Notes under the pieces: model-generated
Databases searched by the model: none
What the model was told of the DNA's origin: nothing
The model's input: the letters and a program-made list of their open reading frames with translations, nothing else
Shown here: one piece after another, positions 1-15,003 of the stretch
Layout: each line of letters starts with the position of its first letter
Numbering within the stretch: the stretch's first letter is position 1
From: a virus
Taxonomy: Duplodnaviria > Heunggongvirae > Uroviricota > Caudoviricetes
Length of the DNA: 15,003 nt
Virus record (IMG/VR): IMGVR_UViG_2695420897_000031
Strand: one strand, 5' to 3'
Translations under genes and position numbers: made by a program

Positions 1-483
1 ATGACGAAGAAAAAAGCACATAAACCTGGTTCAGCGACCATCGCGCTTAACAAGCGCGCCCGTCACGAATACTTTATCGAAGAAGAGTTCGAAGCGGGAC
101 TTGCCCTGCAAGGCTGGGAGGTTAAATCCCTGCGCGCAGGAAAAGCCAATATCAGCGACAGCTACGTCCTTCTGCGTGACGGAGAGGCATTTCTGTTTGG
201 CGCTAACATCACGCCAATGGCCGTGGCCTCCACGCATGTGGTGTGCGATCCTACCCGTACCCGCAAGTTACTTCTCAACCAACGCGAACTGGACTCATTG
301 TACGGTCGCGTCAATCGAGAAGGCTATACCGTAGTGGCGCTCTCCCTGTACTGGAAAAATGCCTGGTGCAAAGTGAAAATCGGCGTCGCCAAAGGTAAAA
401 AACAGCACGATAAACGTTCAGATATCAAAGAACGCGAATGGCAGGTGGATAAAGCACGTATCATGAAAAACGCCCACCGTTAA
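1..483 (+). CDS. smpB: SsrA-binding protein SmpB (tmRNA partner in trans-translation)
   Basis: 160-aa ORF that I recognise along its full length as enterobacterial SmpB ([55 protein letters not shown]...KNAHR). It lies immediately upstream of ssrA, as in E. coli. Confidence 0.97.
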
Positions 484-649
484 ACCTGCACTCCAATTAT
501 TGACCAGTTCCTCACCGCGCCTCCCTCTCCGGCGGCGCGAATGAACATCTTATTGGCTATCACATCCGACACAAATGTTGCCATCCCATTGCTTAATCGA
601 ATAAAAATCAGGCTACATGGGTGCTAAATCTTTAACGATAACGCCATTG

Positions 650-690
650 AGGCTGGTCATGGCGCTCATAAATCTGGTATACTTACCTTT
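650..690 (+). promoter_or_regulatory. putative ssrA promoter region (-10-like TATACT at 678-683)
   Basis: TATACT hexamer sits 15-20 nt upstream of the mature tmRNA 5' end at 698, consistent with a short 5' leader on the precursor. I could not place a -35 element confidently. Confidence 0.35.
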
Positions 691-697
691 ACACATT

Positions 698-1060
698 GGG
701 GCTGATTCTGGATTCGACGGGATTTGCGAAACCCAAGGTGCATGCCGAGGGGCGGTTGGCCTCGTAAAAAGCCGCAAAAAATAGTCGCAAACGACGAAAA
801 CTACGCTTTAGCAGCTTAATAACCTGCTTAGAGCCCTCTCTCCCTAGCCTCCGCTCTTAGGACGGGGATCAAGAGAGGTCAAACCCAAAAGAGATCGCGT
901 GGAAGCCCTGCCTGGGGTTGAAGCGTTAAAACTTAATCAGGCTAGTTTGTTAGTGGCGTGTCCGTCCGCAGCTGGCAAGCGAATGTAAAGACTGACTAAG
1001 CATGTAGTACCGAGGATGTAGGAATTTCGGACGCGGGTTCAACTCCCGCCAGCTCCACCA
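698..1060 (+). ncRNA. ssrA: tmRNA (SsrA), 363 nt
   Basis: Starts GGGGCTGATTCTGGATTCGACGGG and ends with the tRNA-like GGTTCAACTCCCGCCAGCTCCACCA. The tag reading frame GCA AAC GAC GAA AAC TAC GCT TTA GCA GCT TAA (ANDENYALAA-stop) is at 787-819. Confidence 0.95.
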
Positions 1061-1188
1061 ATCATGATTGGACGGTGTAAGGACAACACCAACAAAAACA
1101 GGAAGTTAGCAGTCTCAGCAGGACACCGACCAGACGGTGAGGAGACAAAAAAGGATACGCAAAGGAGCCGCGGCTCTCAAGTGTGAAA

Positions 1189-1216
1189 GAAGCCCGCAAA
1201 TTGCGGGCTTTTTTAT
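1189..1216 (+). terminator. rho-independent terminator-like hairpin upstream of ORF1
   Basis: GC-rich inverted repeat AAGCCCGCAA / TTGCGGGCTT followed by TTTTTTATT. It lies about 130 nt downstream of the tmRNA CCA end. Confidence 0.55.
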
Positions 1217-1269
1217 TGATCAGTCAACAATAAACAGTAACCGAATGAGAATTTAATAAGGATATTCAT

Positions 1270-2301
1270 ATGGAAGCTACTGTGGATTCGATTGATTTTC
1301 TGATCCGTAGTGAAGATGATTTTCTAAACTTTCTGGAAGAAATGAAAGCCCGAGAGGGGCTTGATTCTAAAGAGTTTATTTTCCCTAACGTAAAGTTTGC
1401 AGGCTGGCCATCCTTAGACATAAATGTAAAAGGAGAGCGGTATCATTCATCAATTACATCAGCAATGTTGTTTGGTATGTCAATGCTCAACGAGGAGATA
1501 CAGCGGGCGTTTGCAACCATACGATACGGATCGCAGAATCTTCAACGCTTGACTAATGAAGACAAGCAACGACTTGATATAAATTTTAAAATTAGCGAAG
1601 GTTCTAGTGATGCGGAAGGCACCACTGACAAGATCATCAACGCAGTAACTGATTTTTTGCGAGATACTATGTCTGGACTGAACGGCTGGCAGAAAATGCT
1701 TGTTATAATCACAATGGTTGGCGCGGCCAGCACATGTGGTTATCACTACATTTCAGAAAATGCCGTAACAGAAAGACATGCAACTGATCGGCAGGTTGAA
1801 ATTGCAAAAACCACATCCGATGGCATAAACAAAGCCATAGAAGCAACATTAGATTATAAAATCTATGGGAAATCAGCGATTAGCGATAAAGTTACTAGTC
1901 ACGGACAAGCAGGTAAAAGTGCTTTAGTGAAGCAATTAGCTGCTGATCCTACTGTCGAAACCGTGACTTTAGGAAATGAGAAACTAACACGACAAGACCT
2001 AAATACCTACAACAGCCGACAATCTGTAGATAGAGAACGTAAAGAACGAACTGATATATTTTCCATCAAAGGTGTAACCAGAACAGGGCCAACAAATCAG
2101 GATATTAATATTAACGTTGTTAGGGTCTCTAATGACGAATGCTTCACAATCAAAGCTTCAGCTGATGTTATCACCCAAGATGAGTTGACAGCTATTGTTG
2201 ACGCTTTGTCAAACAACTCTCATATTAAAATCAGTTACTTAGAGGTAATTGAAAAGGGTGCTGTTTCTATAGGTCAGTTCAACACTATTGTTTCAGAATA
2301 A
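1270..2301 (+). CDS. hypothetical protein, 343 aa (ORF1); unknown function, with one hydrophobic stretch
   Basis: Long uninterrupted ORF with an AAGGA Shine-Dalgarno 7 nt upstream of the ATG. Markedly AT-rich compared with the flanking pin and baseplate genes (judged by eye). Hydrophobic stretch MLVIITMVGAASTCGYHY at residues 143-160 (nt 1696-1749). No family recognised, no canonical Walker A. Confidence 0.6.
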   Translation: MEATVDSIDFLIRSEDDFLNFLEEMKAREGLDSKEFIFPNVKFAGWPSLDINVKGERYHSSITSAMLFGMSMLNEEIQRAFATIRYGSQNLQRLTNEDKQRLDINFKISEGSSDAEGTTDKIINAVTDFLRDTMSGLNGWQKMLVIITMVGAASTCGYHYISENAVTERHATDRQVEIAKTTSDGINKAIEATLDYKIYGKSAISDKVTSHGQAGKSALVKQLAADPTVETVTLGNEKLTRQDLNTYNSRQSVDRERKERTDIFSIKGVTRTGPTNQDININVVRVSNDECFTIKASADVITQDELTAIVDALSNNSHIKISYLEVIEKGAVSIGQFNTIVSE

Positions 2302-2352
2302 TCACTTAACCCCATTTATGTCGGTTGAGGTTATAAGTCACGGAGACCAGAT

Positions 2353-2697
2353 ATGTCCTTAAAGTATGCACATGAAAAATTTCATACTGCAGTACTTACT
2401 CTTGCGGGCCATGGAAGTATTCAAGAACGCTTGATTAATTCGTATGTTTTTAGCCTTGGGCATCTTAAAACAGCCGATGATATTCCAAATGCCTTACAAA
2501 GCAGGTTCGATGAATTATGTAAGGAACTGACTAAGTTTGATGCCACTGGCGATGAGGGGCGAGTTCAAGCAACAGTATCAAAACTTAACGATTTCGAGAT
2601 CAATAAACTGATCGAAGATATTGTCAGTCTTAACGATGATATTTGCATGAAATTGGCTCTGACGGATGAGACTTACCAAGACATACACCAAAGTTAA
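2353..2697 (+). CDS. hypothetical acidic protein, 114 aa (ORF2); probably co-transcribed with ORF1
   Basis: ORF starts 52 nt after ORF1 on the same strand, with GGAG 6-9 nt upstream of the ATG. AT-rich and D/E-rich. No family recognised. Confidence 0.55.
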   Translation: MSLKYAHEKFHTAVLTLAGHGSIQERLINSYVFSLGHLKTADDIPNALQSRFDELCKELTKFDATGDEGRVQATVSKLNDFEINKLIEDIVSLNDDICMKLALTDETYQDIHQS

Positions 2698-2724
2698 TTG
2701 ATTAAATTCAAAAAGTTAACGTTC

Positions 2725-2747
2725 AACCAGCCAGTTTTTGGCTGGTT
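2725..2747. terminator. hairpin between convergent ORF2 (+) and ORF70 (-), possible bidirectional terminator
   Basis: Perfect 8-bp stem AACCAGCC / GGCTGGTT with a 7-nt T-rich loop, T-rich on both flanks, located between two convergent ORFs. Confidence 0.45.
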
Positions 2748-2781
2748 TATTGTCTTATAATATTCTTGCTCGAATGATGCA

Positions 2782-2994
2782 CTATTTATGATGTAATCCG
2801 GACATCAGTTCATGGACAAGATTATCTCTTTCATTGTGTTGCAACCGTAAATGCATAGCAAAAAGGTGAGCACTATCCTCATTCCTCTTCAAGCCATGCT
2901 GTTCAAGATACCCGAAAAAACGGCTTCTCTTATCCGCTATTTCCTGAGTCTGACGTGCAACATTTACCAAATTTTCTAGCGTTTTTCTTGGCAT
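2782..2994 (-). CDS. hypothetical small protein, 70 aa (ORF70), downstream of pin on the same strand
   Basis: ORF with a strong AGGAGG Shine-Dalgarno 7 nt upstream of the ATG (reverse complement of 2995-3010). No cysteines, no recognised family. Confidence 0.5.
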   Translation of the reverse strand: MPRKTLENLVNVARQTQEIADKRSRFFGYLEQHGLKRNEDSAHLFAMHLRLQHNERDNLVHELMSGLHHK

Positions 2995-3192
2995 ACTATT
3001 TCCTCCTGAAATTGTTGTAATTCACTAGGATATTCATTTTAATTTGTATCATTTAGTACCAAAACCGCTATCAATTAATAAAGCCATCGTTGTGGTTTAC
3101 CTTGCAGCCGTTTTTTGTCATTGACTCTATGTGAAAATAATGAATCATCATGAGATTGGCTCACACGTTCTTGAATTCGACGAGCTGTGTCT

Positions 3193-3747
3193 TTATTTAT
3201 CTCCTGCCGGAAACCTCTGATACAAAGTCGATACGCCAACATCATAGATAATCGCAACTTTCTGGCGCGGAACTCCTGATGCAATTAATCGTCCGGCTTG
3301 TGCCCATTGTTCTGGTGTAAGTTTGGGACGACGTCCACCAATTCGTCCCTGTGCGCGAGCAGCTTCCAGTCCAGCTTTTGTTCGTTCAACAATCAGTTCT
3401 CGTTCCATTTCAGCCAGGGCCCCCATCACATGAAAGAAAAAGCGCCCCATTGGGGTACTGGTATCAATTGAATCCGTCAGACTACGAAAGTTGATGCCTC
3501 GTTCGCGCAACTCCTCCACCAGCACGACAAGATGCCGCATACTGCGCCCCAGTCGGTCCAGTTTCCAGACCACCAGCGTATCGCCTGCCGATAATGTCCT
3601 GAGCAGTTTTTTCAGTCCCGGCCTTTCGGACTTTGTACCGCTTATCTTGTCTTCAAAAATCAGCTCGCATCCTGCACAGTTCAGCGCATTACGTTGTAGA
3701 TCTGTGTTCTGGTCATTTGTTGACACACGTACATAGCCAATAAGCAT
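3193..3747 (-). CDS. pin: serine DNA invertase, Pin/Gin/Cin/Hin family (184 aa)
   Basis: Starts MLIGYVRVSTNDQNTDLQRNALNCAGCE... and continues with VVWKLDRLGRSMRHL and GRFFFHVMGALAEMEREL, which I recognise as the small serine invertase family. Its 5' end abuts a cix-like site and a tail-fibre cassette. The six-frame ORF extends 12 codons upstream (to 3783) but the family start is the internal ATG at 3745-3747, which has a GGGAG RBS. Symbol pin is by analogy with the e14 arrangement, not from exact identity. Confidence 0.9.
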   Translation of the reverse strand: MLIGYVRVSTNDQNTDLQRNALNCAGCELIFEDKISGTKSERPGLKKLLRTLSAGDTLVVWKLDRLGRSMRHLVVLVEELRERGINFRSLTDSIDTSTPMGRFFFHVMGALAEMERELIVERTKAGLEAARAQGRIGGRRPKLTPEQWAQAGRLIASGVPRQKVAIIYDVGVSTLYQRFPAGDK

Positions 3748-3801
3748 GGTAGATCTCCCTGACAAAAGCAGGAATGATGCCATTTGCTCGTTATTTCTGC
3801 A

Positions 3802-3827
3802 TTTTCATAAACGTTGGTTTAAGAGCA
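3802..3827. other. cix-like recombination crossover site, pin-proximal (TTTTCATAAACG TT GGTTTAAGAGCA)
   Basis: 26-bp site with imperfect dyad symmetry around a central TT, resembling gix/cix/hix sites (AAACC-NN-GGTTT core). Sequence identity with the Sc-proximal site at 14085-14110 begins exactly at the central dinucleotide. Confidence 0.7.
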
Positions 3828-4124
3828 AGCGGGCAGTACACCGATAATTTGTTATTTACAGGTCCTGATGGTCTTAAGATTCAGGTGTTTCGCCGGACGC
3901 TCGCAAATTTGACTACTGTCGGTGTAGTAAATTCTGTGCCAGTGACTTTCCCTGTCCCGTTCCCTGTTAATTGCTGGGGCGTTTTTTCTACCAAATTAAC
4001 ATGGGTTCAGATAACTAACTCATGCGAGTGGGTAAGCAATACAGGATTTACCGCTCAGGTCATGATGAATATTGCTGTAAATACAAACACCTCAGACGCT
4101 ATGTTTTTAGCTATAGGATATTAA
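3816..4124 (+). other. tail-fibre variable C-terminal cassette SvA, promoterless copy facing pin (silent orientation)
   Basis: Identical to the C-terminal 103 codons of the tail-fibre CDS at 13808-14407, but here it has no constant N-terminal part. The six-frame ORF 3774..4124 is a read-through from the pin leader and not a real start. Confidence 0.65.
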
Positions 4125-4125
4125 T

Positions 4126-4566
4126 ATGAATCGTTTTGTGTTCAGTCCATCTGAGTCCCGTTTTTATGCCATCGAGTGGCAGGCTGATTATGTTGATAAT
4201 AATTGTTGGCCACATGATGCCATTAACGTTAGTGACAGTATTTATTATGAGTTTTCCGGCACTCCCCCTACAGGTAAGCAACTTATAACTTTAAATAACA
4301 TGCCAGCATGGGGTGATATTCCTCCACCTACACGAGAAGAATTAATTGTCGCTGCTGATGTGGAGAAGCAAAAAAGAATAGATTTAGCCAATGATTACAT
4401 GAACGGTAAGCAATGGCCTGGTAAAGCAGCTATTGGTCGTCTGAAAGGTGGGGAACTGGCACAATATAATTTGTGGCTGGATTATCTGGACGCACTGGAG
4501 CTGGTCGATACCGCCAGTGCGCCAGATATTGAATGGCCTACGCCTCCGGCAGTTCAGGCAAGATGA
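4126..4566 (+). CDS. tail fibre assembly protein (Tfa/Mu-U-like chaperone), variant A
   Basis: 146-aa ORF beginning 2 nt after the SvA stop. Sequence (MNRFVFSPSESRFYAIEWQADY...LWLDYLDALELVDTASAPDIEWP) is typical of the phage Tfa family that pairs with invertible fibre cassettes. Confidence 0.8.
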   Translation: MNRFVFSPSESRFYAIEWQADYVDNNCWPHDAINVSDSIYYEFSGTPPTGKQLITLNNMPAWGDIPPPTREELIVAADVEKQKRIDLANDYMNGKQWPGKAAIGRLKGGELAQYNLWLDYLDALELVDTASAPDIEWPTPPAVQAR

Positions 4567-4736
4567 CATCCGGCGCGGTGCTGGTATCTGTTGCCGTCAC
4601 CGCGTCAATGTAATCCAGCACAGTGTTAAGGCTGGTTGTTTCTGCCTGCGTCAGTTTACGTCCGGCCTGCAATTTCAGCTGAATCAGACTGATTGAAGCC
4701 ATTGCAGCATCAATCAGTGACTGGCGCTGTGCTTCA
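4538..4736 (-). pseudogene. 3' fragment of tail fibre assembly gene tfaB, cut at junction 4736|4737
   Basis: Reverse complement of the 3' end of the complete tfaB at 8924-9526. It differs from the other copies at one base (4708 C versus T, Thr to Ala in the tfaB frame). It ends abruptly where smpB-derived sequence resumes. Confidence 0.6.
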
Positions 4737-5091
4737 CCTGCGCGCAGGAAAAGCCAATATCAGCGACAGCTACGTCCTTCTGCGTGACGGAGAGGCATTT
4801 CTGTTTGGCGCTAACATCACGCCAATGGCCGTGGCCTCCACGCATGTGGTGTGCGATCCTACCCGTACCCGCAAGTTACTTCTCAACCAACGCGAACTGG
4901 ACTCATTGTACGGTCGCGTCAATCGAGAAGGCTATACCGTAGTGGCGCTCTCCCTGTACTGGAAAAATGCCTGGTGCAAAGTGAAAATCGGCGTCGCCAA
5001 AGGTAAAAAACAGCACGATAAACGTTCAGATATCAAAGAACGCGAATGGCAGGTGGATAAAGCACGTATCATGAAAAACGCCCACCGTTAA
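4737..5091 (+). pseudogene. smpB: smpB 3' fragment (lacks the first 128 nt)
   Basis: Identical to smpB 129-483. The six-frame ORF 4693..5091 is an artefactual fusion of tfaB antisense sequence to the smpB frame. Confidence 0.7.
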
Positions 5092-5305
5092 ACCTGCACT
5101 CCAATTATTGACCAGTTCCTCACCGCGCCTCCCTCTCCGGCGGCGCGAATGAACATCTTATTGGCTATCACATCCGACACAAATGTTGCCATCCCATTGC
5201 TTAATCGAATAAAAATCAGGCTACATGGGTGCTAAATCTTTAACGATAACGCCATTGAGGCTGGTCATGGCGCTCATAAATCTGGTATACTTACCTTTAC
5301 ACATT

Positions 5306-5668
5306 GGGGCTGATTCTGGATTCGACGGGATTTGCGAAACCCAAGGTGCATGCCGAGGGGCGGTTGGCCTCGTAAAAAGCCGCAAAAAATAGTCGCAAAC
5401 GACGAAAACTACGCTTTAGCAGCTTAATAACCTGCTTAGAGCCCTCTCTCCCTAGCCTCCGCTCTTAGGACGGGGATCAAGAGAGGTCAAACCCAAAAGA
5501 GATCGCGTGGAAGCCCTGCCTGGGGTTGAAGCGTTAAAACTTAATCAGGCTAGTTTGTTAGTGGCGTGTCCGTCCGCAGCTGGCAAGCGAATGTAAAGAC
5601 TGACTAAGCATGTAGTACCGAGGATGTAGGAATTTCGGACGCGGGTTCAACTCCCGCCAGCTCCACCA
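5306..5668 (+). ncRNA. ssrA: tmRNA (SsrA), second copy
   Basis: Identical to 698-1060 (offset +4608). Confidence 0.9.
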
Positions 5669-5877
5669 ATCATGATTGGACGGTGTAAGGACAACACCAA
5701 CAAAAACAGGAAGTTAGCAGTCTCAGCAGGACACCGACCAGACGGTGAGGAGACAAAAAAGGATACGCAAAGGAGCCGCGGCTCTCAAGTGTGAAAGAAG
5801 CCCGCAAATTGCGGGCTTTTTTATTGATCAGTCAACAATAAACAGTAACCGAATGAGAATTTAATAAGGATATTCAT

Positions 5878-6909
5878 ATGGAAGCTACTGTGGATTCGAT
5901 TGATTTTCTGATCCGTAGTGAAGATGATTTTCTAAACTTTCTGGAAGAAATGAAAGCCCGAGAGGGGCTTGATTCTAAAGAGTTTATTTTCCCTAACGTA
6001 AAGTTTGCAGGCTGGCCATCCTTAGACATAAATGTAAAAGGAGAGCGGTATCATTCATCAATTACATCAGCAATGTTGTTTGGTATGTCAATGCTCAACG
6101 AGGAGATACAGCGGGCGTTTGCAACCATACGATACGGATCGCAGAATCTTCAACGCTTGACTAATGAAGACAAGCAACGACTTGATATAAATTTTAAAAT
6201 TAGCGAAGGTTCTAGTGATGCGGAAGGCACCACTGACAAGATCATCAACGCAGTAACTGATTTTTTGCGAGATACTATGTCTGGACTGAACGGCTGGCAG
6301 AAAATGCTTGTTATAATCACAATGGTTGGCGCGGCCAGCACATGTGGTTATCACTACATTTCAGAAAATGCCGTAACAGAAAGACATGCAACTGATCGGC
6401 AGGTTGAAATTGCAAAAACCACATCCGATGGCATAAACAAAGCCATAGAAGCAACATTAGATTATAAAATCTATGGGAAATCAGCGATTAGCGATAAAGT
6501 TACTAGTCACGGACAAGCAGGTAAAAGTGCTTTAGTGAAGCAATTAGCTGCTGATCCTACTGTCGAAACCGTGACTTTAGGAAATGAGAAACTAACACGA
6601 CAAGACCTAAATACCTACAACAGCCGACAATCTGTAGATAGAGAACGTAAAGAACGAACTGATATATTTTCCATCAAAGGTGTAACCAGAACAGGGCCAA
6701 CAAATCAGGATATTAATATTAACGTTGTTAGGGTCTCTAATGACGAATGCTTCACAATCAAAGCTTCAGCTGATGTTATCACCCAAGATGAGTTGACAGC
6801 TATTGTTGACGCTTTGTCAAACAACTCTCATATTAAAATCAGTTACTTAGAGGTAATTGAAAAGGGTGCTGTTTCTATAGGTCAGTTCAACACTATTGTT
6901 TCAGAATAA
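5878..6909 (+). CDS. hypothetical protein, 343 aa (ORF1, second copy)
   Basis: Identical translation to 1270-2301. Confidence 0.6.
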   Translation: MEATVDSIDFLIRSEDDFLNFLEEMKAREGLDSKEFIFPNVKFAGWPSLDINVKGERYHSSITSAMLFGMSMLNEEIQRAFATIRYGSQNLQRLTNEDKQRLDINFKISEGSSDAEGTTDKIINAVTDFLRDTMSGLNGWQKMLVIITMVGAASTCGYHYISENAVTERHATDRQVEIAKTTSDGINKAIEATLDYKIYGKSAISDKVTSHGQAGKSALVKQLAADPTVETVTLGNEKLTRQDLNTYNSRQSVDRERKERTDIFSIKGVTRTGPTNQDININVVRVSNDECFTIKASADVITQDELTAIVDALSNNSHIKISYLEVIEKGAVSIGQFNTIVSE

Positions 6910-6960
6910 TCACTTAACCCCATTTATGTCGGTTGAGGTTATAAGTCACGGAGACCAGAT

Positions 6961-7305
6961 ATGTCCTTAAAGTATGCACATGAAAAATTTCATACTGCAG
7001 TACTTACTCTTGCGGGCCATGGAAGTATTCAAGAACGCTTGATTAATTCGTATGTTTTTAGCCTTGGGCATCTTAAAACAGCCGATGATATTCCAAATGC
7101 CTTACAAAGCAGGTTCGATGAATTATGTAAGGAACTGACTAAGTTTGATGCCACTGGCGATGAGGGGCGAGTTCAAGCAACAGTATCAAAACTTAACGAT
7201 TTCGAGATCAATAAACTGATCGAAGATATTGTCAGTCTTAACGATGATATTTGCATGAAATTGGCTCTGACGGATGAGACTTACCAAGACATACACCAAA
7301 GTTAA
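6961..7305 (+). CDS. hypothetical acidic protein, 114 aa (ORF2, second copy)
   Basis: Identical translation to 2353-2697. Confidence 0.55.
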   Translation: MSLKYAHEKFHTAVLTLAGHGSIQERLINSYVFSLGHLKTADDIPNALQSRFDELCKELTKFDATGDEGRVQATVSKLNDFEINKLIEDIVSLNDDICMKLALTDETYQDIHQS

Positions 7306-7389
7306 TTGATTAAATTCAAAAAGTTAACGTTCAACCAGCCAGTTTTTGGCTGGTTTATTGTCTTATAATATTCTTGCTCGAATGATGCA

Positions 7390-7602
7390 CTATTTATGAT
7401 GTAATCCGGACATCAGTTCATGGACAAGATTATCTCTTTCATTGTGTTGCAACCGTAAATGCATAGCAAAAAGGTGAGCACTATCCTCATTCCTCTTCAA
7501 GCCATGCTGTTCAAGATACCCGAAAAAACGGCTTCTCTTATCCGCTATTTCCTGAGTCTGACGTGCAACATTTACCAAATTTTCTAGCGTTTTTCTTGGC
7601 AT
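7390..7602 (-). CDS. hypothetical small protein, 70 aa (ORF70, second copy)
   Basis: Identical translation to 2782-2994. Confidence 0.5.
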   Translation of the reverse strand: MPRKTLENLVNVARQTQEIADKRSRFFGYLEQHGLKRNEDSAHLFAMHLRLQHNERDNLVHELMSGLHHK

Positions 7603-7800
7603 ACTATTTCCTCCTGAAATTGTTGTAATTCACTAGGATATTCATTTTAATTTGTATCATTTAGTACCAAAACCGCTATCAATTAATAAAGCCATCGTTG
7701 TGGTTTACCTTGCAGCCGTTTTTTGTCATTGACTCTATGTGAAAATAATGAATCATCATGAGATTGGCTCACACGTTCTTGAATTCGACGAGCTGTGTCT

Positions 7801-8355
7801 TTATTTATCTCCTGCCGGAAACCTCTGATACAAAGTCGATACGCCAACATCATAGATAATCGCAACTTTCTGGCGCGGAACTCCTGATGCAATTAATCGT
7901 CCGGCTTGTGCCCATTGTTCTGGTGTAAGTTTGGGACGACGTCCACCAATTCGTCCCTGTGCGCGAGCAGCTTCCAGTCCAGCTTTTGTTCGTTCAACAA
8001 TCAGTTCTCGTTCCATTTCAGCCAGGGCCCCCATCACATGAAAGAAAAAGCGCCCCATTGGGGTACTGGTATCAATTGAATCCGTCAGACTACGAAAGTT
8101 GATGCCTCGTTCGCGCAACTCCTCCACCAGCACGACAAGATGCCGCATACTGCGCCCCAGTCGGTCCAGTTTCCAGACCACCAGCGTATCGCCTGCCGAT
8201 AATGTCCTGAGCAGTTTTTTCAGTCCCGGCCTTTCGGACTTTGTACCGCTTATCTTGTCTTCAAAAATCAGCTCGCATCCTGCACAGTTCAGCGCATTAC
8301 GTTGTAGATCTGTGTTCTGGTCATTTGTTGACACACGTACATAGCCAATAAGCAT
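7801..8355 (-). CDS. pin: serine DNA invertase, Pin/Gin/Cin/Hin family (second copy)
   Basis: Identical to 3193-3747 (offset +4608). Confidence 0.9.
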   Translation of the reverse strand: MLIGYVRVSTNDQNTDLQRNALNCAGCELIFEDKISGTKSERPGLKKLLRTLSAGDTLVVWKLDRLGRSMRHLVVLVEELRERGINFRSLTDSIDTSTPMGRFFFHVMGALAEMERELIVERTKAGLEAARAQGRIGGRRPKLTPEQWAQAGRLIASGVPRQKVAIIYDVGVSTLYQRFPAGDK

Positions 8356-8409
8356 GGTAGATCTCCCTGACAAAAGCAGGAATGATGCCATTTGCTCGTT
8401 ATTTCTGCA

Positions 8410-8435
8410 TTTTCATAAACGTTGGTTTGGGAGAA
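8410..8435. other. cix-like crossover site, pin-proximal, second copy (TTTTCATAAACG TT GGTTTGGGAGAA)
   Basis: Left half and central TT are the same as at 3802-3815. The right half belongs to the SvB cassette instead of SvA. Confidence 0.7.
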
Positions 8436-8924
8436 GGCTCTGCATTACCTGTTGGTGTGCCTGTTCCGTGGCCTTCCGCCACTCCGCCGACAGGCTGGCT
8501 GAAATGCAACGGTGCCGCTTTTTCTGCTGAAGAATACCCGGAACTGGCAAAGGCTTATCCGACAAATAAATTGCCTGATTTACGTGGTGAGTTTATTCGT
8601 GGCTGGGATGACGGGCGTGGTATTGATGCTGTACGTGCCTTGCTAAGTCTTCAGAATGGAGGAGTGGAATCACACACCCACCAAGGGCAGCTCTTCAGAG
8701 TTAGTGATTATCGTACAAAAGAAATACCAGCATCAGAAGTTATGGGAAGAGGATATATTGCAAGCCTGACGCCGGGTGCTGATAGCCCACTTGATTTTGA
8801 TGATTATTATGTATCTTCTAATCCAAATGGATATTTTGTCGGGAATCAGAGAACAACAGCATATGGGATAAATGAAACCCGTCCACGGAATATTGCATTT
8901 AACTATATCGTGAGGGCTGCATAA
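8424..8924 (+). other. tail-fibre variable C-terminal cassette SvB (silent orientation, facing away from pin)
   Basis: Encodes ...LKCNGAAFSAEEYPELAKAYPTNKLPDLRGEFIRGWDDGRGID...ETRPRNIAFNYIVRAA, which resembles the receptor-binding C-terminal domain common to enterobacterial phage side tail fibres. The frame is continuous with the crossover site, so inversion would fuse it to the constant N-terminus. Confidence 0.7.
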
Positions 8925-9526
8925 TGGATAACGCTGTATTAAATAGCGAGTTTATTGCTACAAAGGCGGGGAATATTACCGTCTATAACTATGATGGCGA
9001 AACACGGGAATATATTTCCACATCAACTGAATATCTTGCCGTTGGTGTCGGTATCCCTGCATATTCCTGTTTAGATGCCCCTGGCACATACAAAGCTGGT
9101 TATGCAATCTGCCGATCTGTAGATTTTAACTCATGGGAATATGTGCCAGACCATCGCGGTGAAATCGTCTTTAGCACCGAAACAGGAGAATCAAAAGAAA
9201 TCACAGCTCCGGGTGATTACCCTGATAATACAACCACTATCGCCCCGTTAACGCCATACGATAAATGGGATGGTGAGAAATGGGTGACGGATACCGAAGC
9301 ACAGCATAGCGCCGCAGTAGATGCAGCAGAAGCACAGCGCCAGTCACTGATTGATACTGCAATGGCTTCAATCAGTCTGATTCAGCTGAAATTGCAGGCC
9401 GGACGTAAACTGACGCAGGCAGAAACAACCAGCCTTAACACTGTGCTGGATTACATTGACGCGGTGACGGCAACAGATACCAGCACCGCGCCGGATGTCA
9501 TCTTGCCTGAACTGCCGGAGGCGTAG
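8924..9526 (+). CDS. tail fibre assembly protein (Tfa family), variant B
   Basis: 200-aa ORF whose ATG overlaps the SvB stop by 1 nt. Its C-terminal region (...LDYIDAVTATDTSTAPDVILPELP) parallels the C-terminus of tfaA. Confidence 0.75.
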   Translation: MDNAVLNSEFIATKAGNITVYNYDGETREYISTSTEYLAVGVGIPAYSCLDAPGTYKAGYAICRSVDFNSWEYVPDHRGEIVFSTETGESKEITAPGDYPDNTTTIAPLTPYDKWDGEKWVTDTEAQHSAAVDAAEAQRQSLIDTAMASISLIQLKLQAGRKLTQAETTSLNTVLDYIDAVTATDTSTAPDVILPELPEA

Positions 9527-9938
9527 GCCATTCAATATCTGGCGCACTGGCGGTATCGACCAGCTCCAGTGCGTCCAGATAATCCAGCCACAAATTATAT
9601 TGTGCCAGTTCCCCACCTTTCAGACGACCAATAGCTGCTTTACCAGGCCATTGCTTACCGTTCATGTAATCATTGGCTAAATCTATTCTTTTTTGCTTCT
9701 CCACATCAGCAGCGACAATTAATTCTTCTCGTGTAGGTGGAGGAATATCACCCCATGCTGGCATGTTATTTAAAGTTATAAGTTGCTTACCTGTAGGGGG
9801 AGTGCCGGAAAACTCATAATAAATACTGTCACTAACGTTAATGGCATCATGTGGCCAACAATTATTATCAACATAATCAGCCTGCCACTCGATGGCATAA
9901 AAACGGGACTCAGATGGACTGAACACAAAACGATTCAT
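9498..9938 (-). CDS. tail fibre assembly protein, variant A (inverted copy)
   Basis: Identical translation to 4126-4566. Its 3' end overlaps tfaB by 29 bp in convergent orientation. Confidence 0.8.
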   Translation of the reverse strand: MNRFVFSPSESRFYAIEWQADYVDNNCWPHDAINVSDSIYYEFSGTPPTGKQLITLNNMPAWGDIPPPTREELIVAADVEKQKRIDLANDYMNGKQWPGKAAIGRLKGGELAQYNLWLDYLDALELVDTASAPDIEWPTPPAVQAR

Positions 9939-9939
9939 A

Positions 9940-10248
9940 TTAATATCCTATAGCTAAAAACATAGCGTCTGAGGTGTTTGTATTTACAGCAATATTCATC
10001 ATGACCTGAGCGGTAAATCCTGTATTGCTTACCCACTCGCATGAGTTAGTTATCTGAACCCATGTTAATTTGGTAGAAAAAACGCCCCAGCAATTAACAG
10101 GGAACGGGACAGGGAAAGTCACTGGCACAGAATTTACTACACCGACAGTAGTCAAATTTGCGAGCGTCCGGCGAAACACCTGAATCTTAAGACCATCAGG
10201 ACCTGTAAATAACAAATTATCGGTGTACTGCCCGCTTGCTCTTAAACC
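9940..10248 (-). other. tail-fibre variable cassette SvA (inverted copy), ending at a cix half-site
   Basis: Reverse complement of 3816-4124. Here it is not preceded by the constant fibre N-terminus; it meets gp44-like sequence instead. Confidence 0.65.
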
Positions 10249-10250
10249 AA
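10237..10250. other. cix half-site plus central AA, ending exactly at the non-canonical junction 10250|10251
   Basis: TGCTCTTAAACC AA matches the reverse complement of the cix right half and centre. The expected partner half (GGTTTTCGAGA, as at 14085-14096 in reverse) is replaced by ATGGCCGGGAGA. Confidence 0.6.
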
Positions 10251-10251
10251 A

Positions 10252-11211
10252 TGGCCGGGAGATGAGGGTATCACCACGCTTCAGCCGCGCATTAAAAACG
10301 GTTCAAAAGTGGAAGTGCTGATTGGTGATGAGCTGGTGATCACCGGCTGGGTGGAGGCGACTCCCGTTCGTTACGATGCCCGTTCGGTCAGCACCGGTAT
10401 TGCCGGACGTAGTCTGACGGCTGACCTGATTGACTGTGCAGCCGAACCGACACAGTTTAACGGACGCTCGCTGGTGCAGATTGCGCAGGCGCTTGCTGCG
10501 CCTTTCGGCATTGAGGTGGTGAACAGCGGTGCGCCATCGGGTGTTATTCCTGATGTTCAGCCTGATCACGGTGAAACGGTGATTGAGGTAATCAACAAAA
10601 TACTCGGTCAGCAGCAGGCGCTGGCTTACGACGACCCGCACGGTAGGCTGGTGATTGGTGGTATTGGCTCAACGCGGGCACATACCGCGCTGGTACTTGG
10701 GGAAAACATCCTTTCCTGTGATACGGAGAAGAGTATCCGGGAGCGGTTTTCTGTTTACCAGGTGGCGGGGCAGCGTGCCGGAAACGACGATGATTTCGGT
10801 GAGGCCACCACCACCGCGCTGCGGGCCCGCACAGAGGACGCATTTATTGCCCGTTACCGTCCGATGTATATCAGGCAGACAGGGCAGGCTACGGGGGCAG
10901 GCTGTATTGCCCGTGCGGACTTTGAAGCCCGACAACGGGCGGCGCGGACGGATGAAACCACCTATGTGGTGCAGGGCTGGCGACAGGGTAACGGTACGCT
11001 GTGGCAGCCCAACCAGCGGGTGATTGTCTTCGATCCGGTCTGTGGTTTCGACAATACCGAACTGCTTGTCTCGGAAGTCACGTTTACTCAGGACCAGAAC
11101 GGCACCCTGACGGAAATCCGTGTCGGCCCGCCTGATGCTTATCTGCCTGAACCCGAAGCTCCCGGCGCGCGGAAAAAGAAAAAAGCCAGAGTACAGGAGG
11201 ACCCGTTCTGA
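10252..11211 (+). pseudogene. 5'-truncated Mu gp44 (P) / P2 gpD-like baseplate or tail protein
   Basis: Reading frame is open from the junction (WPGDEGITTLQPRIKNGSKVEVLIGDE...) with no start codon or RBS in a sensible position. Family assignment rests on gene order, size and GC-rich phage-like composition. The stop overlaps the next start (TGATG). Confidence 0.5.
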
Positions 11212-11759
11212 TGAGGACGATTGAAGCCATGCAGCGACAACTTCTCGGCCTGATTGGGCGGGCAGTGGTGAAAAGCATCAGTGCCGCCACGAAATGCCAG
11301 ACCGTGGATGTGTCCCTGATTGCCGGTGAACCCAAAGCCGGGGTTGAACATCTTGAACCCTACGGTTTTACCGCAAGGGCAAACAGCGGTGCGGAAGCGG
11401 TGGTGTTGTTTCCGGATGGCGACCGTTCTCATGCGGTGGTTGTTACGGTGTCGGACCGGCGCTACCGCCTGAAAGGGCTGCAGACGGGTGAGGTGGCTGT
11501 CTATGACGATCAGGGGCAGTCCGTGACGCTGACCCGGGAGGGGATCGTGGTGGACGGTGCAGGTAAAACGATCACGTTTCGCAATTCACCTAAAGCACGT
11601 TTTGAAATGGACCTGGAAGTGACCGGACAGGTGAAAGACCTGTGCGACTCCGGCGGCACCACCATGTCAGCGATGCGGCTTGCCTATAACGGGCATCGTC
11701 ACAGAGAGAACGGTCAGGGCAGTAACACCGACAAACCTGATAAAGCGATGGAGGCATGA
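11211..11759 (+). CDS. baseplate assembly protein V / Mu gp45-like spike (182 aa)
   Basis: Contains ...PYGFTARANSGAEAVVLFPDGDRSHAVVVTVSDRRYRLKGLQTGEVAVYDDQGQSVTL... and a DSGGTT motif, which I recognise as the Mu gp45 / P2 gpV family. Translationally coupled to neighbours. Confidence 0.7.
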   Translation: MRTIEAMQRQLLGLIGRAVVKSISAATKCQTVDVSLIAGEPKAGVEHLEPYGFTARANSGAEAVVLFPDGDRSHAVVVTVSDRRYRLKGLQTGEVAVYDDQGQSVTLTREGIVVDGAGKTITFRNSPKARFEMDLEVTGQVKDLCDSGGTTMSAMRLAYNGHRHRENGQGSNTDKPDKAMEA

Positions 11760-12184
11760 TGGAACTGTGGCTGACGGTGAGCGGTAAACGCACCTGCGCC
11801 AGCGCACCGCTGGATCCGCTGACCCGCGCCGTGGTGATTTCCCTGTTTACCTGGCGGCGGGCGGAGCCTGATGACAACGCCGACGTCCCGATGGGATGGT
11901 GGGGGGATACCTGGCCTGCGGTACAGAATGACCGTTACGGCTCCCGACTGTGGCTGCTTCAGCGCAGCAAACTGACCAATCAGCTGGTGCAGACGGTAAG
12001 GGGGTATATCCGCGAATGCCTGCAATGGATGATTGATGACGGCGTGGTGTCCCGTATTGATCTGGATATCCGCCGTACCGGGATTAATGAACTGGGTAAC
12101 AGTATCACTCTCTGGCGTCGTGACGGACCGGTAATGATTTCTTTTGATGATCTGTGGAGTGCGATAACGCATGGCGGACAGTGA
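11756..12184 (+). CDS. Mu gp46-like baseplate protein (142 aa)
   Basis: Small ORF overlapping its neighbours by 4 and 14 nt, in the position of gp46 in Mu-like tail modules. Confidence 0.5.
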   Translation: MMELWLTVSGKRTCASAPLDPLTRAVVISLFTWRRAEPDDNADVPMGWWGDTWPAVQNDRYGSRLWLLQRSKLTNQLVQTVRGYIRECLQWMIDDGVVSRIDLDIRRTGINELGNSITLWRRDGPVMISFDDLWSAITHGGQ

Positions 12185-13229
12185 ATTTCAGCGCCCGACG
12201 CTGGCAGAAAATATCAGTATGCTCCGTAACGATTTATTCGCCAGGCTGGACGTCAGCAACACGCTCCGGCGCATGGATGAAGACGTGCGGGCAAAGGTGT
12301 ATGCGGCGGCGCTGCATACGGTCTACGGGTACATCGATTATCTGGCAATGAATATGCTGCCTGACCTGTGCGATGAGTCCTGGCTGGCGCGACATGCTGC
12401 GATGAAACGGTGTCCGCGCAAGGGGGCCACGGCTGCCAGCGGGTATATGCGCTGGGAAGGTGTCAGCGATGGCCTGAAGGTGACTGCCGGGAGCGTGATT
12501 CAGCGCGATGACCTGGTTCAGTACACGGCAACTGCCGATGCAACCAGCTCCGGTGGTGTCCTGCGTGTGCCGATCACTTGCTCAACTACAGGCGCGGTCG
12601 GTAACGCTGACGACGGTACGGCATTAATCCTGGTCACGCCGGTGAATGGTCTGCCGTCTTCCGGTGTTGCAGATACCCTGACTGGCGGATTCGATACTGA
12701 AGATCTGGAAACGTGGCGCGCCCGCGTCATTGAGCGGTATTACTGGACGCCGCAGGGCGGGGCTGACGGGGACTATGTCGTCTGGGCTAAAGAAGTGCCC
12801 GGCATTACCCGCGCATGGACATACCGTCACTGGATGGGAACGGGAACTGTCGGTGTGATGATTGCCAGCAGTGACCTGATTAATCCCATTCCGGAAGAAT
12901 CAACGGAAACGGCGGCAAGACAACATATCGGGCCACTGGCCCCGGTGGCAGGCTCTGATTTGTATGTATTCAGGCCGGTGGCACATAAAGTGGATTTTCA
13001 TATCCGCGTGACGCCGGATACACCGGAAATACGGGCTGCCATCACCGCGGAGTTGCGTTCGTTCCTGCTGCGTGATGGTTATCCGCAGGGAGAACTGAAG
13101 GTGTCGCGTATCAGTGAGGCGATTTCCGGTGCGAACGGGGAATACAGCCATCAGTTGCTTGCACCGGCAGACAATATCTCCATTGCAAAAAATGAACTGG
13201 CGGTTCTGGGGACGATTTCATGGACGTGA
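12171..13229 (+). CDS. baseplate J-like protein (Mu gp47 / P2 gpJ family, 352 aa)
   Basis: Size, position between gp46-like and gp48-like genes, and overall sequence character are consistent with baseplate J. Confidence 0.6.
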
Positions 13230-13804
13230 CAAACGATGATTACATCCGTCTGTTGTCTGCACTGTTGCCCCCCGGTCCGGCGTGGTCAGCCAGCGATCCG
13301 GCGATTGCCGGTTCGGCACCGTCATTAACCCGCGTTCATCAGCGTGCGGATGCCCTGATGCGGGAGCTGGATCCGCGCACCACCACCGAACTGATAAACC
13401 GCTGGGAGCGTCTGTGCGGCCTGCCGGATGAATGTATTCCCGCAGGGACACAGACCCTTCGCCAGCGTCAGCAACGACTGGATGCGAAGGTTAACCTGGC
13501 GGGCGGCATCAATGAGGATTTTTACCTTGCACAGCTTGCTGCCCTGGGCAGACCAGACGCTACCATCACGCGATACGACAAAAGCACGTTCACCTGCTCA
13601 TCAGCCTGCACTGACGCTGTGAATGCGCCGGAATGGCGGTATTACTGGCAGGTCAACATGCCAGCCGCCACCAACACCACCTGGATGACATGTGGCGATC
13701 CCTGTGATTCCGCACTGCGTATCTGGGGCGACACCGTTGTCGAGTGTGTGCTTAACAAACTCTGCCCGTCGCATACCTACGTAATTTTTAAATATCCGGA
13801 GTAA
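13220..13804 (+). CDS. Mu gp48-like tail protein (P2 gpI-like, 194 aa)
   Basis: Position immediately upstream of the tail-fibre gene, overlapping the baseplate J-like gene by 10 nt. Confidence 0.5.
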
Positions 13805-13807
13805 TTC

Positions 13808-14407
13808 ATGCATCGTATAGACACGAAAACCGCGCAGAAGGATAAGTTCGGCGCGGGTAAGAACGGTTTTACCCGTGGTAACCCCCAGACCGGCACACCT
13901 GCCACCGATCTGGATGATGACTACTTTGACATGTTGCAGGAGGAGCTTTGCAGCGTTGTGGAGGCCTCCGGTGCCAGCCTGGAGAAAGGGCGGCACGACC
14001 AGTTGCTTACCGCGCTTCGTGCGCTGCTGTTAAGCCGCAAAAATCCGTTTGGCGATATCAAATCGGACGGCACGGTGAAAACGGCTCTCGAAAACCTTGG
14101 TTTAAGAGCAAGCGGGCAGTACACCGATAATTTGTTATTTACAGGTCCTGATGGTCTTAAGATTCAGGTGTTTCGCCGGACGCTCGCAAATTTGACTACT
14201 GTCGGTGTAGTAAATTCTGTGCCAGTGACTTTCCCTGTCCCGTTCCCTGTTAATTGCTGGGGCGTTTTTTCTACCAAATTAACATGGGTTCAGATAACTA
14301 ACTCATGCGAGTGGGTAAGCAATACAGGATTTACCGCTCAGGTCATGATGAATATTGCTGTAAATACAAACACCTCAGACGCTATGTTTTTAGCTATAGG
14401 ATATTAA
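13808..14407 (+). CDS. short side tail fibre protein: constant N-terminus (Sc) fused to variable cassette SvA (199 aa)
   Basis: N-terminus [75 protein letters not shown] is a widely conserved enterobacterial prophage tail-fibre N-terminus. The cix site at 14085-14110 lies inside the CDS at the Sc/Sv boundary, as in Mu S and e14 fibres. Confidence 0.8.
14085..14110. other. cix-like crossover site, Sc-proximal (TCTCGAAAACC TT GGTTTAAGAGCA), inside the tail-fibre CDS
   Basis: Same right half and central TT as 3802-3827, with a different left half. Both halves contain the AAACC/GGTTT core. Confidence 0.7.
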
Positions 14408-14408
14408 T

Positions 14409-14849
14409 ATGAATCGTTTTGTGTTCAGTCCATCTGAGTCCCGTTTTTATGCCATCGAGTGGCAGGCTGATTATGTTGATAATAATTGTTGGCCACATGA
14501 TGCCATTAACGTTAGTGACAGTATTTATTATGAGTTTTCCGGCACTCCCCCTACAGGTAAGCAACTTATAACTTTAAATAACATGCCAGCATGGGGTGAT
14601 ATTCCTCCACCTACACGAGAAGAATTAATTGTCGCTGCTGATGTGGAGAAGCAAAAAAGAATAGATTTAGCCAATGATTACATGAACGGTAAGCAATGGC
14701 CTGGTAAAGCAGCTATTGGTCGTCTGAAAGGTGGGGAACTGGCACAATATAATTTGTGGCTGGATTATCTGGACGCACTGGAGCTGGTCGATACCGCCAG
14801 TGCGCCAGATATTGAATGGCCTACGCCTCCGGCAGTTCAGGCAAGATGA
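14409..14849 (+). CDS. tail fibre assembly protein, variant A (expressed orientation, downstream of Sc-SvA)
   Basis: Identical translation to 4126-4566. Confidence 0.8.
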   Translation: MNRFVFSPSESRFYAIEWQADYVDNNCWPHDAINVSDSIYYEFSGTPPTGKQLITLNNMPAWGDIPPPTREELIVAADVEKQKRIDLANDYMNGKQWPGKAAIGRLKGGELAQYNLWLDYLDALELVDTASAPDIEWPTPPAVQAR

Positions 14850-15003
14850 CATCCGGCGCGGTGCTGGTATCTGTTGCCGTCACCGCGTCAATGTAATCCA
14901 GCACAGTGTTAAGGCTGGTTGTTTCTGCCTGCGTCAGTTTACGTCCGGCCTGCAATTTCAGCTGAATCAGACTGATTGAAGCCATTGCAGTATCAATCAG
15001 TGA
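14821..15003 (-). CDS. tail fibre assembly protein variant B, 3' portion (runs off the window end)
   Basis: Reverse complement of the 3' end of tfaB (8924-9526). Carries T at the position where the copy at 4708 has C. Confidence 0.6.
   Translation of the reverse strand, partial: SLIDTAMASISLIQLKLQAGRKLTQAETTSLNTVLDYIDAVTATDTSTAPDVILPELPEA

Follow-up and report, generated by a model that had tools for sequence, protein, structure and literature searches.

The window analysed here, a stretch of 15,003 nucleotides, carries a 3.7-kb direct repeat and two non-canonical junctions, and it raises the question of whether a prophage locus had been rearranged in a genome or had been put together wrongly in an assembly. 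The original prediction offered both readings, a multi-copy amplification accompanied by rearrangement and a chimera that the inversion repeats had caused during assembly or concatenation; the chimera was borne out by Ns in the source record, by the collapse of the blocks to one normal locus and by the absence of the junctions elsewhere, and the amplification was not. Judging from the sequences compared, the mosaic very probably consists of three redundant draft contigs of one ~9.5-kb Escherichia coli prophage locus, chained by single Ns, and would then be an assembly artefact with no rearrangement of the genome. As a whole, the mosaic is not a real feature.

Self-alignment of the window divided it into three blocks (c1, c2 and c3, Table 1). 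Positions 129-3820 recurred at 4737-8428 over 3,692 nt with 100% identity and 0 mismatches, exactly as had been predicted, 3814-4735 matched the reverse complement of 9329-10250 with one mismatch (at 4708), and 9344-10250 was identical to the reverse complement of 14097-15003 (907 nt, 100%). One half of a tail-fibre cassette was present in three copies (3814-4735, the reverse complement of 9329-10250, and 14097-15003). Homology broke at 4735/4737, where the interior of a tail-fibre assembly gene (tfa) gave way to nucleotide 129 of smpB, and at 10250/10252, where the core of a crossover site gave way to the interior of a gp44-like baseplate gene on the opposite strand. The genes named in the original prediction (smpB, pin, tail-fibre assembly and the gp44-like baseplate gene) and the crossover sites had been identified correctly.

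The window corresponds to the final 15,003 bases of the draft record GCA_001285125.1 / CYAN01000050.1 (39,303 nt), with coinciding right ends; a literature search for the accession GCA_001285125.1 found no paper mentioning it. Compared over 14,695 nt, locus L011 (CYAN01000050.1 24609-39303) and window positions 309-15003 differed at two positions only, 4736 and 10251, each reading 'A' in the window and 'N' in CYAN01000050.1. These were the sole Ns in the locus, and both fell exactly on the break points located independently by self-alignment of the window. As the junction bases are N in the source record, both non-canonical junctions are single-N joins between three contigs and hold no sequenced DNA. 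The deposited record thus had, at 4736 and 10251, the gap symbol that marks a scaffold join, and the continuously sequenced novel join of a tandem duplication or amplification was not found, the base at 4736 being N. The two predicted junctions hold as breaks of homology in the text of the window, but not as continuous DNA. Displayed as 'A', the Ns made two gaps resemble sequenced illegitimate junctions.

The first join reads tfa...GTGCTTC-x-CCTGCGCGCAGG...smpB (x being position 4736) and the second ...CTCTTAAACCAA-x-TGGCCGGGAGATG... (x being position 10251); the base shown at 4736 matched neither flanking block. The first junction had been explained by a 4-bp CTGC microhomology, an explanation that falls away, CTGC (4738-4741) being smpB bases that happen to match tfa beyond the gap. 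A chimeric 'smpB' ORF spans this join (4693/4729-5091), and look-ups of its product (132 aa; 120 aa with a V or M start) returned no match, likely because the product called on the record has an X at the N. No place spanning either junction was found in 5,426 complete E. coli genomes. Exact-pattern scans of genome, viral and metagenome contigs with 'A' at the join found nothing, and patterns with an N wildcard at the join had no match in viral or metagenome contigs. A join recoverable in independent sequences, as a duplication or amplification could provide, was accordingly missing from the complete E. coli genomes and from the viral and metagenome contigs.

Table 1. Coordinates of contig blocks, gaps, genes and crossover sites in the 15,003-nt window.
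Feature	Position	Strand	Description
Contig block c1	1-4735		Defined by self-alignment; smpB, ssrA, three cargo ORFs, pin(-), crossover site, then part of the invertible segment
Contig block c2	4737-10250		From smpB nt 129: ssrA, cargo ORFs, pin(-), crossover site, entire invertible segment
Contig block c3	10252-15003		Baseplate genes, fibre gene, tfa'; runs to record end
Scaffold gap	4736		N in source record, A in window
Scaffold gap	10251		N in source record, A in window
Redundant stretch	129-3820 (copy 4737-8428)	+	Between-contig redundancy of c1/c2
ssrA (tmRNA, tag ANDENYALAA)	698-1060; redundant copy 5306-5668	+	
pin, 184-aa serine DNA invertase	3193-3747; redundant copy 7801-8355	-	Pfam Resolvase + HTH_7
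Crossover site, pin side + Sv'	3802-3827		TTTTCATAAACG TT GGTTTAAGAGCA
Crossover site, pin side + Sv	8410-8435		TTTTCATAAACG TT GGTTTGGGAGAA
Complete invertible segment, about 1.83 kb	8422-10250		Sv, tfa (200 aa, +), tfa' (146 aa, -), Sv' (-)
Half-site + core at c2 end	10237-10250		Outer half supplied by the reverse complement of 14085-14096 after merging c2 and reversed c3
Tail-fibre gene, state A, 199 aa	13808-14407	+	96-codon constant part + Sv'
Crossover site, fibre constant part + Sv', intact 26 bp	14085-14110		CTCTCGAAAACC TT GGTTTAAGAGCA

The contents and the ends of the three blocks were those of overlapping contigs. Block c1 carried the first 922 nt of the invertible segment with Sv' beside pin ('state B'), and c2 had Sv adjoining pin ('state A'). 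The end of c1 lies inside the antisense of the 200-aa tfa gene, and within its last 28 nt it has the C variant found in other tfa paralogues, a C/T difference at 4708; in five other genomes, the alignment to c1 halted exactly at 4735, where their sequence continues naturally. The right end of c2 falls in the TT/AA core, on the last base that every crossover-site context shares. Block c3 encoded a gp44-like baseplate hub without its first ~40 codons, followed by gp45-like, gp46-like, baseplate J and gp48/YmfQ genes, the fibre gene (constant part, crossover site, Sv') and tfa', and its orientation relative to c2 is the reverse of the natural one. The third cassette copy is cut off by the end of the record 16 nt before the point at which c1 ends, so that the c1 and c3 ends lie 15-16 nt apart in tfa, just past the site where c1 has the tfa-paralogue allele. 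Block ends at repeat or branch points, a mark of scaffold-join artefacts, were therefore observed at the right end of c2 and, for c1 and c3, in tfa. The repeat 129-3820 / 4737-8428 is redundancy between two contigs and not a duplication.

The blocks collapsed to a single normal locus. The suffix of c2 and the prefix of the reverse complement of c3 overlapped perfectly over 907 nt, and merging 1-128, c2 and reversed c3 gave a 9,487-bp locus that was collinear, in order and strand, with the complete genome of E. coli NWU_1 (L001: 1-4029, 4265-5070, 5624-9487). Each of the three blocks was also collinear on its own with normal loci of complete genomes, and in the complete genome CP148277.1 the genes after a 99.2% identical cassette were fibre(-), ymfQ(-) and J(-), the arrangement of c3 in reverse. 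Redundant blocks that collapse to the locus of finished genomes, another mark of such an artefact, were thus found through perfect overlaps of 3,692 and 907 nt and through NWU_1 and CP148277.1. The real locus, beside ssrA, forms the terminal part of an SfV-like prophage whose baseplate is of the Mu type, and reads smpB, ssrA, three cargo ORFs, pin(-) and the invertible segment [Sv, tfa, tfa'(-), Sv'(-)], then the fibre constant part(-), ymfQ(-), J(-), gp46(-), gp45(-) and gp44(-). Searches of Pfam, PADLOC, NCBIfam and PHROGs gave no function for the three cargo ORFs.

Within this locus, a classical inversion switch of the Pin/Gin type is a real element, present in both orientations (c1 versus c2 and c3). 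Pin is a small serine recombinase with an N-terminal resolvase domain (PF00239, 1.8e-51) and a C-terminal HTH (PF02796, 4e-13); it matched the Gin invertase structure 3uj3 at E = 1.3e-93 (3uj3 and 4m6f at E = 1e-93 to 1e-92, residues 1-181), and the pin gene of relatives is annotated pinE. The predicted intact cix site at 14085-14110 was confirmed (Table 1). In the merged locus the segment is bounded by two inverted 26-bp sites with an identical 2-bp core (TT/AA), one at 8410-8435 and the other at 10225-10250, the reverse complement of 14085-14110; no more than about 55 nt separate the crossover site from the start codon of pin. Sv is a C-terminal fibre exon with a Collar domain, Sv' has a gp53-like C domain, and two Caudo_TAP genes are present. 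Joining the constant part of the fibre gene to Sv at 8422 gave an in-frame alternative of 263 aa, and a single constant N-terminus can thus receive alternative C-termini (199 aa, 263 aa) with their cognate assembly proteins. The sister genomes NWU_1 and NWU_3 have the segment in opposite orientations at the same chromosomal locus, and the pin|Sv' and pin|Sv joints both occur within the single assembly GCA_001285125.1; both orientations therefore exist in nature.

The two-orientation redundancy, together with the tfa paralogues, most likely misled the assembler or the scaffolder. Pin (Gin/Hin/Cin-type) flips the segment between the two inverted 26-bp sites, and the fibre constant part is thereby fused to Sv' in a protein of 199 aa or to Sv in one of 263 aa; the culture was presumably a mixture of the two orientations. 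Both the pin|Sv' and the pin|Sv joints were among the reads, and paralogues of the tfa region exist elsewhere in the genome; these two conditions may have led the assembler to emit three contigs with long stretches in common, one (c1) representing state B and two (c2, c3) state A. Scaffolding or gap-filling could have linked these contigs through their common sequence with a non-positive estimated gap, leaving one N per join where an end-to-end overlap was not found, and c3 was set in the wrong orientation. A single N in the output of SSPACE, ABySS or GapFiller would by convention denote an overlap that was estimated but not found, although literature searches for this convention, the GapFiller paper included, gave no direct confirmation. 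GapFiller extends both edges of a gap and closes it only with an overlap of at least 10 nt of the expected size, so that unclosed joins with redundant flanks can persist (PMC3446322). The window shares with short-read scaffold joins of this kind (SSPACE, GapFiller, ABySS) exactly one N per join, flanking blocks that overlap elsewhere rather than abut and that collapse to a normal locus, block ends at repeat boundaries and a record end inside a repeat; it differs from the usual cases in an unusually long redundancy of 3.7 kb and in the mis-orientation of c3.

A genuine rearrangement would combine a tandem duplication of 4,608 bp (from smpB nt 129 into the interior of tfa) by illegitimate recombination, Pin recombination between a crossover site and a quasi-site in the gp44-like gene and a further duplication, with the Ns as ambiguous calls; in principle, reads might support a junction in which one ambiguous consensus base is written as N, but neither junction was sequenced, and this reading is very improbable. 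Its second break falls on the position of serine invertase cleavage, the core of the site, and close relatives have CC AA TGG in gp44 at this place, with an AA dinucleotide beside the break. Cin and Gin use quasi-sites at low frequency, and as in their quasi-site recombination a genuine site is broken at its core dinucleotide and the partner has an AA close by; here, however, the partner half-site resembles a site weakly, the reciprocal product is absent and the join is N. Since the site core is also the end of the common sequence, a node of the assembly graph, the position of the break cannot separate artefact from rearrangement. Inversion at a quasi-site further predicts a hybrid site after the fibre constant part, whereas the site at 14085-14110 is complete and the 907 nt after it match c2 without a difference. 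Inversion by Pin at the gp44 quasi-site was accordingly rejected, given the weak half-site resemblance and the missing reciprocal hybrid site, and the earlier argument from the intact 14085-14110 site that a single Pin inversion or deletion cannot yield this order was right. The first break is formally head-to-tail, as in a tandem duplication. Tandem and tandem-inversion duplications form at microhomologies, as known from amplification in Salmonella and E. coli, and the block order, with head-to-tail and head-to-head units, is superficially like theirs; here, by contrast, the novel join is an N and the copies overlap in part, representing a single locus in its two inversion states. A rearrangement would also require at least three independent events within 10 kb, the record stops in the third cassette copy 16 nt short of the c1 end in the pattern of a contig end, and the junctions were absent from the 5,426 complete E. 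coli genomes and the other collections scanned. A large inversion from the first-copy site to the right site, acting on an earlier tandem duplication, was also rejected, as it gives a join of c3 to a cassette half and not the c2|c3 join, and the Ns make the scenario unnecessary. Nor is the window periodic or rolling in units of 10,283 bp, the distance at which one of the repeats recurs, 1-3808 not being equal to 10284-14091. Slightly less credible still is that the scaffold links came from real read pairs of a sub-population of cells, in which Pin had recombined with the CC AA TGG quasi-site in the gp44-like gene and a 4.6-kb tandem duplication from ssrA to pin had arisen.

Two further readings also make the mosaic an artefact and place its origin differently. 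It is unlikely, though far less so than a rearrangement, that the redundancy stems from a second, near-identical copy of pin and the cassette in another prophage, fixed in the other orientation, with the ssrA side threaded through the common pin into both. The cassette occurs twice in the complete genome CP122451.1 (L019, L020) and also in several prophage types, the crossover site is about 55 nt from the pin start while unique sequence is more than 600 nt away, and part of c1 comes from a second tfa-like sequence, as the C/T difference at 4708 shows. Against such a copy, c1 and c2 are 100% identical over 3,692 nt, the cassette halves differ at one base, 28 nt from the contig end, no second baseplate or pin variant is visible within the window, and NWU_1 and NWU_3 show this very locus both ways, which means that switching occurs here. 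A chimera made during preparation of the window by concatenating unrelated pieces absent from the public record would fit the differences between window and record at the two junction bases, but over 14,695 nt the three blocks of CYAN01000050.1 agree in order and orientation with those of the window, the replacement of N by A being the only change; this origin is refuted by that block structure and has a negligible probability.

The scaffolded mosaic carries no weight as biology and serves as a caution. Where both orientations of an invertible fibre segment coexist in a culture and the segment recurs among prophages, draft assemblies can yield redundant contigs that scaffolders chain, and once a real base is substituted for N such gaps look like junctions of illegitimate recombination. 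Counts of real genes in the record should leave out the chimeric 'smpB' ORF as well as the duplicates of ssrA, pin and the cargo ORFs. If the rearrangement were true after all, it would be a natural example of Pin quasi-site recombination with local amplification, of moderate relevance to specialists, and the sub-population reading, if true, would show an invertase causing off-target prophage rearrangements caught in routine isolate sequencing.

The biology of the switch itself is already known and ordinary. Like the Pin/P segment of e14, the Gin/G segment of Mu and the Cin/C segment of P1, it has a 184-aa Resolvase + HTH_7 invertase transcribed away from the segment, two inverted 26-bp sites with the TT/AA core, and in-frame alternative fibre C-termini, each with its own tfa chaperone, here with both orientations in sister genomes. 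Compared with e14, which is at icd, it sits in an SfV-like prophage beside ssrA, without a difference in kind, and it differs from the e14, Mu and P1 systems in carrying a particular Sv' allele with the gp53-like C domain.

Self-comparison of the window bore out the 3.69-kb direct repeat of the original prediction, with 4737-8428 repeating 129-3820 over 3,692 nt without mismatch. The reverse complement of 9329-10250 matched 3814-4735 save for one mismatch at 4708, and 14097-15003, which reaches the window end, was the exact reverse complement of 9344-10250 (907 nt). The self-alignment lost homology at two points, 4735/4737 and 10250/10252, and base 4736 agreed with neither flank. The CTGC microhomology proposed for the first junction proved to be four smpB bases that chance to agree with tfa past the break.

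Positions 24609-39303 of the source record (GCA_001285125.1 / CYAN01000050.1; 39,303 nt), which run up to the record end, were identical base for base to window positions 309-15003 except at 4736 and 10251, which are 'N' in CYAN01000050.1 and 'A' in the window. The 14,695 nt contained no other N, and these two fell exactly on the break points of the independent self-alignment. Neither junction is therefore sequenced: at each, a one-base gap symbol stands where two separately assembled pieces meet, and the mosaic is no real genomic feature. The same substitution of A for N in supplied windows can make false junctions in other windows too. Probes of 240 nt across each break, searched with BLAST against 5,426 complete E. 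coli genomes, gave thousands of half-matches and no place spanning either break, and viral and metagenome contigs, scanned for the junction patterns with an N wildcard, gave no match.

Features of the locus in the window
Feature	Position (strand)	Second copy	Details
smpB	1-483		
ssrA (tmRNA)	698-1060	5306-5668	
ORF, 343 aa	1270-2301 (+)	5878-6909	between ssrA and pin
ORF, 114 aa	2353-2697 (+)	6961-7305	between ssrA and pin
ORF, 70 aa	2782-2994 (-)	7390-7602	between ssrA and pin
pin, 184-aa serine invertase	3193-3747 (-)		Resolvase and HTH_7; matches Gin structure 3uj3 at E = 1.3e-93
Crossover site	3802-3827		TTTTCATAAACG TT GGTTTAAGAGCA
Crossover site	8410-8435		TTTTCATAAACG TT GGTTTGGGAGAA
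Crossover site	14085-14110		CTCTCGAAAACC TT GGTTTAAGAGCA
Tail-fibre C-terminal exons Sv (Collar domain) and Sv' (gp53-like C domain)			inside invertible segment
Two Caudo_TAP tail-fibre assembly genes			inside invertible segment
Mu-type baseplate genes (gp44-, gp45-, gp46-, gp47/J- and gp48/YmfQ-like)	10309-13804 (+)		

The same chromosomal locus in the complete genomes NWU_1 and NWU_3 comprises smpB, ssrA, hypothetical ORFs, pinE (-) and a segment of ~1.8 kb, oppositely oriented in the two genomes, past which lie fibre (-), ymfQ (-), J (-), gp46 (-), V (-), baseplate assembly (-) and, farther on, tape measure (-) genes. By this order, the window consists of three contig blocks: c1 (1-4735), in the natural order with Sv' adjoining pin; c2 (4737-10250), in the natural order from smpB nucleotide 129, with Sv adjoining pin; and c3 (10252-15003), which carries the natural fibre and baseplate region as its reverse complement and begins ~40 codons into the gp44-like gene. 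The final 907 nt of c2 are the opening 907 nt of reverse-complemented c3, and merging 1-128, c2 and reverse-complemented c3 gave 9,487 bp that aligned to NWU_1 in a single order and strand (1-4029, 4265-5070 and 5624-9487), the gaps being the allelic fibre exons. The complete genome CP148277.1 carried the same cassette at 99.2% identity, then fibre (-), ymfQ (-) and baseplate J (-), which is c3 reversed. In five other genomes aligned to the tail of c1, the match ended exactly at 4735 and the genomes continued into tfa. Nine of the ten listed occurrences of the 116-aa Sv' ORF led on to tfa' (+), then tfa (-), a fibre exon (-) and baseplate/tail genes (-); the tenth (locus L021) had an IS transposase gene after tfa (-). 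Phage matches were to SfV, SfI, SfII and SfIV. The public record's chimeric smpB ORF and its second copies of ssrA, pin and the cargo genes are artefacts of annotation. This chimeric ORF, at 4693-5091 (+), crosses the N at 4736; the record's own gene call is 4729-5091.

The contig ends carried further signs. The end of c2 is the final base that every crossover-site context shares (pin side ...AAACG/TTGGTTT; fibre side ...AAACC/TTGGTTT), at once an assembly-graph branch and the invertase cut site, so its position cannot separate biology from artefact. Within one and the same stretch of tfa, the ends of c1 and c3 are separated by 15-16 nt, and the record ends within the third cassette copy. The three cassette-half copies differed solely at 4708, within the last 28 nt of c1, which has C there; c2 (9356), c3 (14991) and CP148277.1 have T. 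The C allele is shared with tfa paralogues of other prophages (comparison loci L001, L002, L003 and L008), suggesting that the c1 end was assembled from another tfa copy of the same genome.

What is real here is a standard Gin/Hin/Cin/Pin-type switch, an inversion system already well known. The complements of its three crossover sites correspond in essence to the pix sites of e14, and an in-frame fusion joins the constant fibre part (96 codons) to either Sv' (199 aa) or Sv (263 aa). The ssrA-side sequence is identical in c1, where pin adjoins Sv', and in c2, where it adjoins Sv; the sequenced culture therefore probably contained both segment orientations. A second near-identical copy of pin and cassette elsewhere in the genome, such as the two cassette copies of CP122451.1 (L019 and L020), is an unlikely substitute for the mixed culture and would leave the verdict unchanged.

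By scaffolder convention, a lone N would mark an unresolved join of this kind. Two orientation states would yield redundant contigs with long identical stretches in common, which a scaffolding or gap-filling step presumably linked while estimating no positive gap, leaving one N at each join for want of terminal overlap. GapFiller, for one, extends both gap edges, and closure requires that an overlap of 10 nt or more, of the expected size, be found (PMC3446322). Block c3 was placed forward in the record, i.e. reversed relative to the natural locus. The original prediction had offered amplification with rearrangement or an assembly chimera, and the latter stands, with Ns at the joins and blocks that collapse into one locus. 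A real tandem duplication with quasi-site recombination is very improbable: it needs several independent events, the reciprocal hybrid site expected of such recombination is absent, and no junction is sequenced.

An identical Sv'/tfa'/tfa/Sv cassette (loci L014-L023) was joined to two baseplate types, one Mu/SfV-like (gp44-48) and one with Phage_Wedge1 and Sheath_initiator, which illustrates that entire switches are exchanged horizontally among prophage lineages.

The three ORFs between ssrA and pin, situated at the prophage end, gave no match to Pfam, PADLOC or NCBIfam; the sole match of the 343-aa protein was phrog_6191, which has no assigned function. In other genomes, this slot beside pin was occupied either by GmrSD or by an EcoRII-type R-M system together with a LEM-3-like GIY-YIG nuclease (loci L013, L015, L018, L020, L021 and L023), and two of the GmrSD loci had an RVT_1 reverse-transcriptase gene farther upstream. 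The slot looks like a hot-spot for defence or moron cargo, in which the three ORFs may represent uncharacterised cargo.

The gp44-like baseplate hub gene was also broken within ~25 nt of the equivalent of 10230-10275 in several unrelated assemblies (among loci L003-L012), by a TAG stop (L006, L012), a G-run (L007), a 13-N gap (L008) or unrelated upstream DNA (L004, L005, L009, L010). Part of this clustering is selection bias, because the truncated 300-aa gp44-like ORF was the query; the zone may also be a mosaic boundary between prophage modules.
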